Source: Pseudomonadota bacterium (lineage in GTDB: Bacteria; Bdellovibrionota_B; Oligoflexia; Oligoflexales; RGVZ01). From it: DNA of 26,470 bases. Positions 3,001-9,000 of this stretch are shown piece by piece. How positions within the stretch are numbered: the first letter of the stretch is position 1; every line of letters starts with the position of its first letter. A program made the position numbers. Where the stretch lies: NCBI GenBank assembly GCA_041178085.1, contig JBEGVZ010000001.1, positions 1 to 26,470 of the forward strand, given 5' to 3'.

Positions 3001-6000
3001 AAGGGCGCTGGTCGAGCCGTCCGAGTACAGGGCAGCGACTGCCTCGAATTTTCGGTTGCGAGGTAGTTCATCTTGTCCGTGAGCTGGCAGTGTGGCGATG
3101 ACTGGCATCAAGGCAATCGCAGTCATGATGGGCTTCGTCATGTTTACTTTCCGCAAGTCGGGCAGGAAGTTCCTGCGCTTGCGCCGCTACCACTGGCGCC
3201 TTTTTCGTTAAGGCGTGCAGGCTCACCGAGGGTCGCACCAGCAAGGCCAGGGTCCTTTGCCGGGTCCATCAACGGGTCCAGGATTTGCGCTTTCTTGAAT
3301 TTTACGTCCGGGTTGACGCACCCCGAAAGGAGGGCGCCCGCCGCCAGCAGGATAGGCATCATTTTCACGCGGGTTTCCTTTCCCTTCCGGATGCATTTGC
3401 CTCCGGTCTCGTGGATGATTTTACAATGGTTCAGTGTGCCTGGGAAATTTGCCTGAAAAGTCGTTCAAATTCCACGGGTGAGCCATGCCCGAGCAACTGC
3501 CCGGCGACGCTGCCGTCGCGGTTGATGAACAGGGTCGCCGGAACAGCCTTGATATTCAGGCTTTCGGCAAGTTTCTGCCTGGTGTCGACAAACGCTGCAG
3601 CAGTCAGCCTTTCTGCGAGGGGCCCTGCAGGTTTCAGATAATTCCGCGCAGCAGCCGGATCTTCGTCAAGACTTATGTTGATGAAGCCGACTTTAAGATC
3701 ATTGGTGTCGAGCTTCTTGATCGAGGACTCCATGGCAGAACGGCAGCCGACACACCAGGATGCCCAGAACTGAACGATGAGCGGCTGGCCCGTGGGTATG
3801 CCAGCCGCCTTGTTTTCTGTTTGTGCCGCCAATGCAACAGGTGCTGCCTTTGCAAACTCGTCATGGAAGCGGGGTGCGTTTCCGGCGATCGCATTGGTGG
3901 CCAAAAATGCGATGGCGATGAAGGTCGAAATCCGGAGAATCATCTAGTCGCCCCTTTTCAAGTTTTTTCGCTCAGTTGCTGGAAGCTAGCGTCCGCAGCG
4001 CGGACAACACGGCGCTGTTCGGGTGGGGCAGGTTGGTGAACATCCCCCGGCCATTCTGGCCCAGGACCACGATCACATTGCGATCAGGTTTCGAAGGGTC
4101 ATTCTGGAGTGACAACCAGAGGCTGCTACGCTCGTCGTGAGCTCGCAGCGAAGCCGGCGCCCAGGTCCCCATGAATCCTGCGAAGTCCTGATCCTGGAAG
4201 TCCTCAAGGAAGTCCGTGAAGACGACGACATGCGCGACGCTGTTGCCACCAGCGGACTGTAAAGAGGAAGTGAATTCACGGGCGTCTGCCTGGCATGTGT
4301 TGCAGGTCACGCCTGCAAACTGGAATATGGCGGCTTTTTTTCCGGTCGCGGCAAGTGCTGCCTGAAGAGACATGCTGCGCCCCTGGTAGTTGATTCGCCA
4401 TGATGATGCCGGCAAGTCTTGAATTTGATTCCCGGGCTGAAGCCTGCCGCCACTTTGGATCGCCTGGCCAGGCTGTTGTTTCGCAGGTTCTGGCTGTGCA
4501 GAGCTGGCGCAACCGCCAAGTGTGGTTGCCAGCAAGAAGGGAATGACTGCAAGTGCGGTCTTCATGGGTTTGGTCTCCTGATGCTTCTTGTTGAGCAAGG
4601 TTCGTGCCGCCTGCGGTATCCGCGCTTTCTTTTACAAGGGTGTTGTACGTGGCGGGATTCATGCGGATTTTTTCCGGGGTATGCTGGTTACGGGATTGGA
4701 GCCCCTTCCGCTGACTGTCGAATGCCTTGCCGGTGACAAGATCGTGGACGGCAGGTGGGCCATTTGTGGCCGATGAAAAGTCAGCAAATTATTGAAATTA
4801 TTGAGTAATTTTCTTTGTTCGCGCCGCCGGCCTCTGGCACAAGTCTTGAATATGCCGTGGTATCTCGGAAAGGCAGGTTGTTGCTGTGATTCGTAATCCT
4901 TTGATGAACCGCTCTGTCTTCATGTTTGCCCTGGCGATCCTGCAGGGTGCTTGTATGGGTCCGCGTGGCGGGCTGGGTGCGCCGGGGTCCGCTCGCCGGG
5001 CTTCGCTCACCTCCATCGACGTGAACCTACCCGATGCATCGATGTTGGAGGCGCGTGACCAGAGAGTCCGCCAACTCATCAACGATCAAAATTTCGGTTC
5101 AAGGATCGTGGTGGAACCCTCAGACCCCACTTGTGTCGCCCCAACACGAATCGATGAGGTTTCCAAATTCGAAGCTTCGCTTCGCCTTGGCGTCTCCATC
5201 AAGCAGGGTTGCGACTACCTGGTGACCGTAGAACTTGGCCGGACAGGCGCCGCCGGTCGGATGATGGACGCGATGTTTCGTAACGACCCCCCGTTGGCGA
5301 TAAAGCGTTCGGACATCCAGGGCAAGCCGACCTTCCAGGCCAATATCGTTTTGAAGGTCGTCACCAACCAGCAACAGGATCAGCAAAACGTACCTTCAAG
5401 ACCTGCGTTCCCGGCAGAAAAAGATTCCGAATTCCTGGACGCCCAAGGCAACACTGTTCGTTTGTCAGAGATCTTCCGCGGTGAATACCTTCTGCTTGAT
5501 TTCTCTCAGCCAGGATGTAGCGCTTGCATAAGCATGGCCGAGGAACTGACAACGGATCAGGAGTTCATGCGTGCTTTCGCATTGGAAGGTTCAAAGTGCT
5601 CCATGGCAACCGTGGTCCCGCAAAGCCAGCGTAGCGGGTGGCTGTCGATGTTCTCCGCCACTGACATGATCGGTCGTCATTCCGTGTTTCCGGCAGGTGG
5701 ATTTTCAGAAGTCGCGGGTAAATTTGGTGAGCGGATCACGGCAACCCCGACGTTCCTTCTGATTGATCGTTCAGGCAACGTAGTCGGTAAGAGCGCTGGC
5801 GGGTTGCCGGACAATGCCAGACAGCTTTGCCGGTGATCAGCTGCCCAGCAAAGCCGTGGTCTGGACAACCAGGCTGTAGCCACGCATGGACCCGCGGTCG
5901 GTGACCGGCCTGGACACAAGCTCGCTGCCAGTCGCTTTATCACTCGTGCCAGTCGTTTGAAGTTCATCGTAGTTGGCAGTGTAACTGGCAATCACAGGCA

Positions 6001-9000
6001 CATCGATCCATGCCGATATAACGTATCCATCAATCGTCGTTTTAAGGTCCTCACGGGAATTTGACTTTCTGGGCTTGCGCCAGTTTGCGTTAAAGGAAGC
6101 TCCTGCGATTGCTGACAACCTGGTGCTTCTCAGCACGTAATTGTCGAGCAGGGCTGTCCGCGTGGTTGAGTTTTCCTGACTATCCGTGACGACCAGATCC
6201 TTTTCGAAAGCGCTACCGATGGCGCGACCGGTCGCGTCGATGTAACCAACACCTGCAAGCAGGGCTGGTGTGCCAGCCGCGAATTCACCTAGCTGGTAAC
6301 TACCCAGGACGGTGATTCCAGTGCCGTTGTAGTCCACGTCAATTCTGCGTAACTGGCCGGGATTGACCGGCTCGTAAGGACCAAGCACCAAATCCAGCGT
6401 GGAGCTGAACTCCCATTTTCCGCGACCGGCCACATAACCGAGGCTGATTCTTCCCGCTTTGCCCCGGACGTCGTGAATGCCATCTGTTTCCAGTTCGTGC
6501 AAGGCCAGGCCAAGGCCGAAAGACCACGAGGAGTGCTTCCCCGTTACGGGGGCTGTGCTCGCTGCCTGGGCATTCTTGCCGACAAGGGTGGATGCAGTTA
6601 AGGCTATAACCACCGCCAGCGCAGCCGCCGGAGCTGAAGTTCCCCTGCGTCCCTCCAGCCACCGGATGATCACGATCGAAAGCTCGAACAAGGCATAAAG
6701 AGGCACTGCCATGACGAATTGCGACACAGGGTCTGGCCCCGGAGTCAGCAGTGCGGCAATGATCAGCAATACAACGAGTGTTGCCCGGCGCTGTGACGAG
6801 AGCATCTTCGAGTCAACGATGCCAAGCATTGACAGGAGGATCAGAATCAATGGCGCTTCAAACACGAGTCCGAATCCTGCAAACATCAAGACGAGAAGGT
6901 TGATGTAGTCCGTCACAGTGATGATCGGCACGCCAACTTCAAGGCCCATCTGGATCAAGAATCCCAGCGTAAAAGGCAACGCGACGAAGTAACAGAAGGA
7001 CACTCCCGCCAGAAACAGCACGACAGACCCCCAGATGAACGGGAGAACGTATTTGCGTTCAGACGGATAGAGTCCAGGCTCGAAGAATTTCCAGAATTCC
7101 CTCAGCCAGAACGGGCTGGTGATGATCACAGCGCCCATGAAAGCCACCTTCATGCCGGTGAACATCACATCCATCGGGCCGGTGAAATGAAGCGCAGGAA
7201 CACCCGGGGGCAGAGCGTTCACGAGTGGGGTTTTCAGGTAGTTCAAGAGTGCCTGGGACTTGAACACCAGGATCAAGAACGTCACCATCAGCACCGTCAT
7301 GGACCGGGTCAATCGCCGGCGAAGTTCATCCAGGTGTTGAAGCAGTGGCATGGCTTTTTCCAGGTTCACGCTAGTGTGCCTCCAACCAGTCTGCGCCGAC
7401 GCCGATTTCGACTTTCAATGGTACTGACAGTTCCAGCGCAGTTTCCATGGCATTGCGGATGATTTGTGTGGACCGCGCTGTTTCGCTTGCCGGCCCCTCA
7501 AAGACGAGTTCATCGTGGACTTGCAACAGAAGGCGCGTCGCAAGTCCGGCTTCCGCAAGTTCCCGCTCAACCCGGATCATTGCCAACTTGATGAGGTCCG
7601 CTGCACTCCCCTGGATTGGCGAATTGACGGCGATGTTTTCTGCGTTGACCTGGGCAAGGCGGTCGCTGGAATGCAGGTCAGGCACAGGTCGCCTGCGGCC
7701 GGTCATGGTCTGGGTGTAGCCGTTGCTCCGTGCGCGTGCGATCGCCTGCGCGATGTAGTCCCGGATCCCGGGGTAACCAGCAAAGTATTTCTCGATGAAT
7801 TCTTTTGCCTCGGCCATGCTGACGCCGGTCTCACGCGCCAGGCGCTGCGGCCCCATGCCATAGATGATTCCAAAGTTGATCGCCTTGGCCCGGGAACGCA
7901 ATGTGGCATCTACATCCGCGGGTGCGACGCCGAAGATGCGTGCAGCTGTGGCCGTGTGGATGTCCTCGTTGTTGCGAAAAGCCCCGGCAAGTGCAGATTC
8001 GTTCGCAACGTGGGCAAGGATGCGCAGTTCGATCTGGGAATAGTCTGCCGAGATGATCACGCTGTCCGGTGAACCGGCGCGGAATGCCTTGCGGATCTCC
8101 CGGCCCTGCGGCGTGCGGATCGGGATGTTCTGCAGGTTTGGATCGGATGAGCTGAGGCGTCCCGTTGCTGTCCCGGTCTGGTGAAAGCTGGTGTGGATGC
8201 GGTTGGTGGACGGCTTGATCAACTGGGGCAACGTGTCGACATAGGTATTTTTCAACTTGGTGACTGAGCGATACTCAAGGATTGCTGATGGCAGCGGGTG
8301 TTCGCTCAGCGCCTCCAGAACGGACACATCGGTTGAGAATCCGGACTTGGTTTTCTTGAGGCGCTTGACGCCAGTGACTTCATGGACTTTCAGTTTTTCA
8401 AACAGGATATGTTGTAGCTGTTTTGTCGAGTTTATGTTGAAGGTCTCGCCGGCGAGTTCGTGGATTTTCTTTTCCAGTCTTTGCGCCTCACCTGCCAGGC
8501 GTTCAGAAATGACGGACAGGGTTTCCGCGTCGACGAAAACGCCGCGCTGCTCCATCGCAGCAAGCACCGGTACAAGCGGCATGTCGACGTCGTGGAGGAC
8601 TTTATCCAGCCCTGCCTTGGCAATCTCTCGTGTGAAATGCAGGTATAGCCGGAAGGTGACTTCGGCGTCTTCGATCGCATACTCCGATAGTTTGTCCAGC
8701 GGGACATCAGCCATCGGAGTTTCCCCGCGCAGGCCAATCAGGTCAGAGGTCGGGATTTTCATGATGCCAAGGTAACGAAGCGCGCATGCATCCAGTCCGT
8801 GTTCACGGCCGATCGAATCCAGCAACCAGCTGCAAATCATCGTGTCGGTGAAAGGGCCCTGCGGCTTGATGCCGGCGTTGTGCAGCATCTGAAGATCGAA
8901 CTTCAGGTTGTGCGCCACTTTCATCTGTCCTGGCTTTTCCAGCCACGACTTCAGCGCGGCTTTGACTTCCGTGATGGAAAGCCCGCCGTCAAGGTGCTTG

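Follow-up and report, generated by a model that had tools for sequence, protein, structure and literature searches.

How should a gene be read that opens as the inner-membrane translocase subunit TatC and closes as an outer-membrane protein? Such a gene lies in the window, the whole stretch of 26,470 nucleotides analysed here (Table 1), and an earlier note took it for a natural polyprotein in which signal peptidase separates TatC from an OmpW-like barrel that serves the Tat system. That the fusion itself is real is clear. A single stop-free frame spans TatC and the barrel in all seven genomes of the genus, the fused protein is present in independent assemblies, and the junction is crossed without gaps by contigs from two further runs, which confirms the earlier statement that both parts share one frame. 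The gene starts with GTG, 9 nt downstream of the GGAGG, and the ribosome-site duplex at this 5' start has an energy of -9.3 kcal/mol in 7/7 genomes of the genus. A long open frame by itself does not establish fusion, as one relative (G071) shows, where a frame of 528 aa is open over the barrel and yet tatC is separate, in another frame. A second independent fusion in that genome was rejected, as the open stretch is off-frame relative to tatC. The fused form is seen in one genus only, and a search with the 81-row alignment, confined to proteins of 561-2000 aa, returned no longer barrel fusions. A scan of named genomes gave three loci only. Promoter and terminator scans were no better than chance, and a single metatranscriptome contig of 259 nt, of no use for expression, overlaps the 3' end of the gene (5739-5997).

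Table 1. Features of the fused locus in window coordinates; residue numbers are those of the fused protein.
Feature	Coordinates	Strand	Remarks
Fused gene, 510 aa	5837..7369	-	TatC, signal-peptide-like helix and outer-membrane barrel
TatC, six helices, residues 1-235	6665..7369	-	Pfam match, residues 11-223, at 7339-6701
Cytoplasmic net-positive stretch after TM6, residues 236-242	6644..6664	-	would act as n-region
Seventh helix, uncharged and hydrophobic, residues 243-264	6578..6643	-	h-region
c-region, residues 265-269	6563..6577	-	Ala at -3 and -1; predicted SPase I site A269|A270
Predicted mature protein, 241 aa	5840..6562	-	eight-stranded outer-membrane beta-barrel; unnamed family
Third periplasmic turn (long) and start of strand 7, residues 429-448	6026..6085	-	motif RPxGNxPELLxTRxEG
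Shine-Dalgarno-like GGAGG	7379..7383	-	within the 3' end of polA, ahead of the GTG start
polA	7371..10259	-	opens the conserved polA-tatC-barrel block; 1 nt separates its end from the fused gene

The first part of the protein is an ordinary TatC. Pfam TatC (PF00902) covers residues 11-223 over its full length (profile 1-208, E 1.1e-61, 208.7 bits), confirming the normal six-helix TatC described earlier, and TIGR00945 scores 180.9 bits against a cut-off of 132.7. The fused gene is the only tatC copy in the genome; TatA and TatB-like genes are present away from it, as are genes for proteins with a twin-arginine motif. Residues H12, E15, R19, F95, P98, L100, E104 and D213 are identical across 44 TatCs. 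Three of them keep the signal-binding and periplasmic E. coli TatC positions F94, E103 and D211 (as F95, E104 and D213, the numbering of the first two being matched by motif), the role of F94 and E103 being given in two sources (PMC13673990, PMC5102672). As the sole TatC of a genome that encodes twin-arginine motif proteins, the fused TatC presumably transports twin-arginine substrates. Atypical TatCs are known, including a 14-helix haloarchaeal TatC, a TatC-TatC fusion (PMC13673990), and TatCs with periplasmic loop inserts (PMC13323110). With standard and atypical TatCs alike the fused protein shares the full six-helix core with its signal-binding residues, alongside TatA and TatB; the fusions and inserts in the available parts of these two sources, however, join TatC to TatC or lie in loops, and none consists of a C-terminal signal peptide followed by an outer-membrane protein.

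Between TatC and the barrel lies a junction of 43 to 72 residues with almost no shared columns among the fused sequences; from residue 243 to 279 the sole conserved column is an Ala. A signal peptide consists of a positive n-region, a hydrophobic h-region and a c-region with small residues at -3 and -1 and a helix breaker at -4 to -6, as given in PMC9360617, and the junction has this n/h/c form. In all 13 fused junctions the n-region has a net charge of +2 to +5, an uncharged run of 21-37 residues is present, an [A/L/T/S]-x-A site lies 5-17 residues ahead of strand 1, and Ala occupies -1; position -3 is Leu in 6/13, and the window has Gly at -6. Its h-region reaches a best 12-residue Kyte-Doolittle value of 2.55, against a median of 2.13 for stand-alone signal peptides. 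A helix at 249-262 appears in the low-confidence AF2 model of the full-length chain (10 sequences, pLDDT 60, pTM 0.42, junction <50), which was used for secondary structure only. The cleavage site itself is harder to single out. On shuffling the c-region, an A/L-x-A site arises in 21-68% of shuffles per sequence. A home-made weight matrix, built from 70 stand-alone signal peptides, gives the fused junctions scores of 0.3-8.0, but the best windows within TatC itself do as well (2.7-5.5), and only 3 of the 13 junctions reach p<0.05 on shuffling. The small-x-A rule is obeyed by 9/10 barrel fusions and 15/17 fusions of TatC to LptD, but also by 9/13 other TatC fusions with a seventh helix. Since these motif tests are weak or do not discriminate, we regard cleavage at the junction as a prediction. 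The twin-arginine consensus (Z-R-R-x-hydrophobic-hydrophobic) is absent from the junction, where the window reads G-R-R-G-T-S and the RR is not conserved. SPase I and BamA are encoded in the genome, and stand-alone orthologues of the barrel begin with ordinary N-terminal signal peptides.

The extension gives no Pfam match at E<=1 and no NCBIfam match, and a PDB sequence search with the barrel profile gave none either; the family was found here only in this order (Oligoflexales). An AF2 model of the barrel from 81 sequences (pLDDT 88.8) has eight strands, so this part of the earlier description stands. The strands are antiparallel, with long outer loops, and alternate between hydrophobic and polar residues, with aromatic girdles of Trp/Tyr/Phe at their ends; the inward-facing columns, read from this alternation, are Gly/Ser/Thr/Asp/Arg/Glu, which points to a small polar lumen. 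Fold matches include NspA (1p4t, Z 16.2, rmsd 3.0, 154 aligned), the Legionella Dot/Icm porin III (9nh2, Z 15.6, rmsd 3.4, 177 aligned) and OmpW (2f1t, Z 15.2, rmsd 3.1, 177 aligned), together with OprF/OmpA barrels and PagL at Z 14.8, 14.1 and 13.6. The fold is shared with all of these, but identity is 6-12%, and the barrel departs from them in its long conserved periplasmic turns, small polar lumen and non-aromatic C-terminus. The term OmpW-like therefore applies to the generic eight-stranded fold and is too specific for the family, because NspA and the Legionella porin match the barrel as well as OmpW does, and because its lumen is polar, whereas that of OmpW is hydrophobic; the OmpW profile matches 0/81 barrel members at E<=0.5. 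Barrel members terminate in LLG[V/T/I/S]; the final residue is aromatic in 3/81, so that the canonical C-terminal aromatic beta-signal is lacking. This Phe/Tyr signature of outer-membrane proteins is described as genus-specific in PMC3223724. Leu is the final residue of a further OMP-like ORF in the window, and Tyr that of BamA of the genome. The motif of the third periplasmic turn ranks with the best-conserved stretches of the family and is altered in the fused genus; since conserved periplasmic motifs have changed there, the function of the barrel may have shifted. In the ESM Atlas, the nearest clusters are hypothetical or OMP_b-brl at 0.95, a lead only, with a recognition of 2027 below the 2300 mark. 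Most likely the barrel is a small polar-lumen structural or receptor protein of OmpA/NspA type with its own job in the envelope, its conserved periplasmic turns most likely binding a periplasmic partner.

In unfused relatives the barrel gene directly follows tatC in 31/35 genomes, as the earlier note had held. The gap of about 100 nt that it reported between the two is not found: counted from the final base of the tatC stop, the barrel start falls between -25 and +4 nt in 27/28 loci, overlapping or abutting the stop, with a 4-nt overlap in 13 of the 28, and the supposed gap is the barrel's signal peptide. Before tatC stands polA (29/31 loci, also in a family that has no barrel); downstream of the barrel, gene content varies. 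Two genomes (G007 and G015) have the barrel away from tatC, and its profile finds no match in five families (f4 0/3, f5 0/4, f9 0/1, f17 0/2, f18 0/27), which mostly have TatC where this was searched; five genomes, from incomplete assemblies, gave none even at E<=10. Second tatC copies in five genomes have no barrel match alongside.

We consider the fused gene, at a probability of about 0.7, to be an old fusion, arisen by frameshift or stop loss, that works as a two-membrane polyprotein from which SPase I frees the barrel at A269|A270. From the gene order of relatives, the ancestral operon would have been polA-tatC-omp with the omp start overlapping the tatC stop, and the mutation in the ancestor of the genus would have joined the two while retaining the Sec signal peptide of omp. 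As the topology suggests, the ribosome would insert the six TatC helices via SecYEG, leaving the end of TM6 in the cytoplasm, after which the positive tail and hydrophobic stretch would enter as a seventh helix with its C-end outside and open Sec for the unfolded barrel. SPase I would then cut, BAM would fold the freed barrel into the outer membrane, and TatC, retaining its seventh helix, would assemble with the separately encoded TatA and TatB. Of the earlier polyprotein claim, what holds is that it is the best reading, because the topology fits, the signal-peptide form is kept in 13/13 junctions, the junctions share no usable internal start and the linker could not span a periplasm; the cut itself stays a prediction.

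That the fusion is a recent accident, as the earlier note allowed, or an error of assembly, and its tail one that the cell could do without, might be suggested by the restriction to one genus, but has a negligible chance of being right in view of the many independent assemblies. The fused sequences form one clade (support 100/100) on both the TatC and the barrel tree, and this clade sits on a long stem. Barrel dN/dS is 0.08-0.19 in the 8/21 pairs with estimable dS, the remaining pairs being saturated, and barrel identity relative to TatC identity is like that of unfused genera. With synonymous sites saturated and the barrel under purifying selection, the fusion is therefore old and kept. The chain might instead stay uncut, the seventh helix anchoring the barrel to TatC and either bridging the membranes at a pinch point or holding the barrel in the periplasm. 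The weak cleavage statistics, 13 other long TatCs with a seventh helix and a further domain, and the missing C-terminal aromatic would all fit. We find this quite unlikely, however: the 5-17 residues from the site to strand 1, plus some 5-8 to the helix, would stretch to at most ~6-9 nm in a periplasm roughly 15-25 nm wide, the amphipathic strands, aromatic strand ends and best fold matches are those of membrane barrels, and the unfused orthologues have ordinary signal peptides. Cleavage at or near the junction by another protease, periplasmic or intramembrane, would suit the variable sequence around the site and motif tests that do not single out SPase I; we rate it as very unlikely, given that the junction derives from a Sec signal peptide with Ala at -1 throughout and that SPase I is present. 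Translation of the barrel from an in-frame internal start in the junction, with the fused frame as a read-through by-product, appears more improbable still. An ATG does mark the beginning of the hydrophobic core in 4/7 genomes, and the window has a GTG at V253 (6613), but the positions of junction starts are not conserved, G004 has none of ATG, GTG or TTG there, the positive n-region would be lost, and no ribosome site at these starts is stronger than -5.6, whereas the 5' start has -9.3. If the barrel had a start of its own, a stop behind TatC ought to be tolerated, yet 0/13 junctions have one.

Compatible with the cut is the proposal that Tat has in the barrel a dedicated partner in the outer membrane, which helps substrates to reach or cross the outer membrane, its ratio to TatC being fixed by the fusion. 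In its favour are the adjacency and coupled starts in unfused genomes, the varying downstream genes, the conserved periplasmic face and the presence of a Dot/Icm secretion-system porin in the group of tied fold matches; a weak hint comes from G069 and G039, whose two OMP-like genes are very diverged yet still overlap the tatC stop. The same context does not single out Tat, however. Linkage to tatC is as strong for polA, which has no Tat role, the barrel is detached or undetected in relatives, second tatC copies lack it, tatA and tatB are located elsewhere, a twin-arginine motif occurs in 0/82 stand-alone barrels, the lumen of eight strands leaves too little room for folded proteins, and LptD forms the same kind of fusion with TatC. 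Co-folding of TatC with the barrel scored 0.00, which neither supports an interaction nor counts against one. We think such a partnership unlikely, and the earlier claim of a lineage-specific Tat partner is left unsupported; the barrel is most likely tied to TatC by expression and not by Tat function. Rather doubtful, too, is the bolder idea of a first outer-membrane Tat component, whose conserved periplasmic turns would take over proteins exported by Tat or link the translocase to the outer membrane, supplied 1:1 by a cleaved chain that leaves a seven-helix TatC; repeated independent OMP-TatC fusions would in that case be a sign that Tat is generally coupled to the biogenesis of the outer membrane.

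A polyprotein that joins TatC to a barrel has, by analogy, a precedent in FbcH of Bradyrhizobium japonicum, the precursor of cytochromes b and c1 that is cut by signal peptidase. Both consist of a polytopic inner-membrane protein, an in-frame internal signal peptide belonging to the second protein, and a second exported protein, and both correspond to separate genes in relatives. They differ in that the FbcH products share one inner-membrane complex and their cleavage is demonstrated, whereas in the present case an outer-membrane barrel comes second, no shared complex is evident and cleavage is predicted. Within our literature search, which covered few subscription papers, no TatC-OMP fusion and no bacterial two-membrane polyprotein was found. 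If the chain is cut as predicted, a single bacterial gene would provide a translocase subunit for the inner membrane together with a protein for the outer membrane, extending signal-peptidase polyproteins of the FbcH kind across two membranes; SecYEG could then switch, within a single chain, from the insertion of six helices to the export of a beta-barrel, and TatC would work with a seventh helix. Annotators should be warned that database names give these proteins as plain TatC and so hide the barrel, which belongs to an unnamed, conserved family of outer-membrane proteins in this order whose conserved periplasmic face is unusual. The barrel is not the only such passenger, as LptD_2 (PF19838) lies behind TatC in 18/59 long TatCs (e.g. 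P0120). These have the same order of TatC, basic tail, hydrophobic helix, small-x-A site and outer-membrane barrel protein, but the passenger, an LPS insertase of ~900 aa, is unrelated and their TatC is only 34-39% identical to that of the fused protein; the two fusions probably arose independently.

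TatC, as delimited by Pfam, occupies residues 11-223 of the fused protein (E 1.1e-61), and no match in Pfam or NCBIfam was found outside these residues. The TatC part is intact. The counterparts of E. coli F94, E103 and D211, whose importance is described in passages of PMC13673990 and PMC5102672, do not vary across 44 TatCs, the fused one included. The fused gene is the single tatC of the source genome (96% complete), which also encodes TatA, a TatB-like gene, signal peptidase I, BamA and proteins with twin-arginine motifs. In the TM5-TM6 loop, close to the TatA/B site, the fused genus carries one Gly more than the unfused consensus (TPGPD vs TPPD; residue 211, window 6737-6739 region).

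The fused gene and its neighbours in the window
Feature	Position	Strand	Remarks
Fused gene, open frame of 510 codons	5837-7369	-	1 nt past polA stop; GGAGG 9 nt upstream
Cluster downstream of the fusion	424-5836		similar genes at the same place in two other genomes (G002, G005)
Protein with two CxxCH motifs	424-2097		
OMP-like ORF	2113-3156		ends in Phe; without Pfam match
Three thioredoxin-fold CxxC proteins	3431-3943, 3972-4598, 4886-5836		
Consecutive TolQ/ExbB, TolR/ExbD, TolA/TonB-like and TolB genes	13287-17102		no Pal-like ORF directly after
NUDIX domain fused to glycerate kinase domain	18063-19766		

The fusion of TatC and the barrel is real and old. As the earlier note had it, both lie in a single frame, and this is borne out in all seven genomes of the genus, by 11 fused database proteins from NCBI, JGI, ENA and Logan assemblies, and by contigs of two additional runs that span the junction without gaps. 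TatC was found in 57 and the barrel part in 42 of the 61 genomes searched. In the TatC tree as in the barrel tree (35 rows), the fused rows form a single clade (100/100) with long stems. The barrel is under selection, with a dN/dS of 0.08-0.19 in the eight pairs with estimable dS; most of the 21 pairs show saturation at synonymous sites. When barrel identity is set against TatC identity, the fused genus resembles unfused genera. The fused form was not found beyond this group among 86 representatives or 104 genomes. A 528-aa open frame in another genome (G071), considered as a further fusion, is not one.

The barrel was matched in 35 unfused genomes: directly behind tatC on the same contig in 31, elsewhere in two (G007 and G015), and interrupted by contig ends in two. 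The gap of ~100 nt previously reported between tatC and the barrel gene turns out to be the signal peptide: measured from the final base of the tatC stop, a start codon falls at -25 to +4 nt in 27 of the 28 loci inspected, with a 4-nt overlap in 13 and TAATG in two. A frameshift or loss of the stop at an overlap of this kind would give the fused layout. At the G015 locus (L107, contig C69), the barrel gene is apart from polA-tatC but still neighbours an ABC-F-like ATPase gene, the usual arrangement in its genus, and has an HTH gene and an AAA_14 ATPase gene upstream; this layout is either a rearrangement or a misassembly.

The junction ranges from 43 to 72 residues with hardly any common columns. 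What 13 of 13 sequences share is a stretch behind TM6 with a net charge of +2 to +5, then 21-37 residues in a row without charge, and, 5-17 residues ahead of strand 1, an [A/L/T/S]-x-A site; this pattern matches the n/h/c signal-peptide definition in a passage of PMC9360617. The predicted site in the window protein is A267-Q-A269, followed by A270. A Tat signal was ruled out here. The C-terminal end of TatC is cytoplasmic, and therefore the junction helix is in signal orientation. We favour, at a probability of roughly 0.7 for the whole route, a scheme in which the six TatC helices would be inserted co-translationally, the seventh would reopen SecYEG, SPase I would cleave between A269 and A270, BAM would assemble the released barrel, and a seven-helix TatC would stay in the Tat complex. 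FbcH of Bradyrhizobium is a precedent for such a signal-peptidase polyprotein.

Descent, topology and the short linker argue for cleavage, whereas the motif tests do not set the site apart: 21-68% of c-region shuffles yield a site of this kind, a weight matrix does not distinguish the junctions from TatC's own helices, and the small-x-A rule also holds for 9 of the 13 other TatC fusions with a seventh helix. The interpretation of the earlier note is supported in part. The single frame, intact TatC, signal-like helix, predicted barrel fold and selection are shown; insertion, cleavage and assembly are inferred. That the chain stays uncut, with the seventh helix as a tether, is improbable, since the linker would reach ~6-9 nm at most across a periplasm roughly 15-25 nm wide. 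We consider a split by another protease still less probable, and synthesis of the barrel from an internal start the least likely: the junction in one fused-gene relative (G004) has none, and starts elsewhere are without a strong ribosome site.

The proposal that the barrel is a partner of the Tat system is compatible with cleavage but is not supported, and the barrel is probably not such a partner, although a small chance is left to it. polA precedes tatC in 29 of 31 TatC-centred loci, and also in both loci of a family without the barrel; gene order is therefore conserved here whatever the function. Five families are without a barrel profile match, yet TatC was found there where searched, and second tatC copies (five genomes) have no adjoining barrel match. 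LptD_2 is carried by 18 of 59 long TatCs (database proteins P0120-P0147), and the 17 junctions examined all have the same helix, with a small-x-A site in 15. These fusions resemble ours in the helix behind TatC, but their passenger is an unrelated outer-membrane protein. That the C-terminus of TatC takes such passengers supports the design and weakens a specific TatC-barrel link. Another 13 long TatCs, some labelled Planctomycetota or Myxococcota, have a seventh helix and a tail of 200-380 aa, without Pfam match in the six tails scanned. Passages of a Tat review of 2026 (PMC13673990) and a TatBC structure paper (PMC13323110) describe only TatC-TatC fusions and loop inserts, and no description of a TatC-OMP fusion was found in the literature searched, whose coverage is incomplete.

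AF2 on 81 sequences predicts eight strands for the barrel (pLDDT 88.8). In fold it comes closest to NspA (Z 16.2), then to Legionella Dot/Icm porin III (15.6) and OmpW (15.2), followed by OprF (14.8), OmpA (14.1) and PagL (13.6), all at 6-12% identity and in weak agreement with Foldseek. Hydrophobic and small polar residues alternate along the strands. OmpW is a hydrophobic channel, whereas the inward faces of the barrel are polar, so it is not a channel of that type. The long third periplasmic turn (RPxGNxPELLxTRxEG) and strand 5 are the most conserved parts, and conservation of this turn points to a possible periplasmic partner; the third and second turns are changed in the fused genus. The usual C-terminal aromatic, an outer-membrane protein signature according to a passage of PMC3223724, is present in 3 of 81 barrels. 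The barrel profile is matched in 62 of 104 genomes, all of one order, and one named record with a match is an Oligoflexales MAG. In two genomes, G069 (locus L100:2208-2972) and G039 (L103:2198-2911), OMP-like genes overlap the tatC stop, and their divergence puts them beyond reach of the barrel profile (E 3e-4 and 9e-3, single-sequence scale); they may be missed, fast-evolving orthologues of the barrel.
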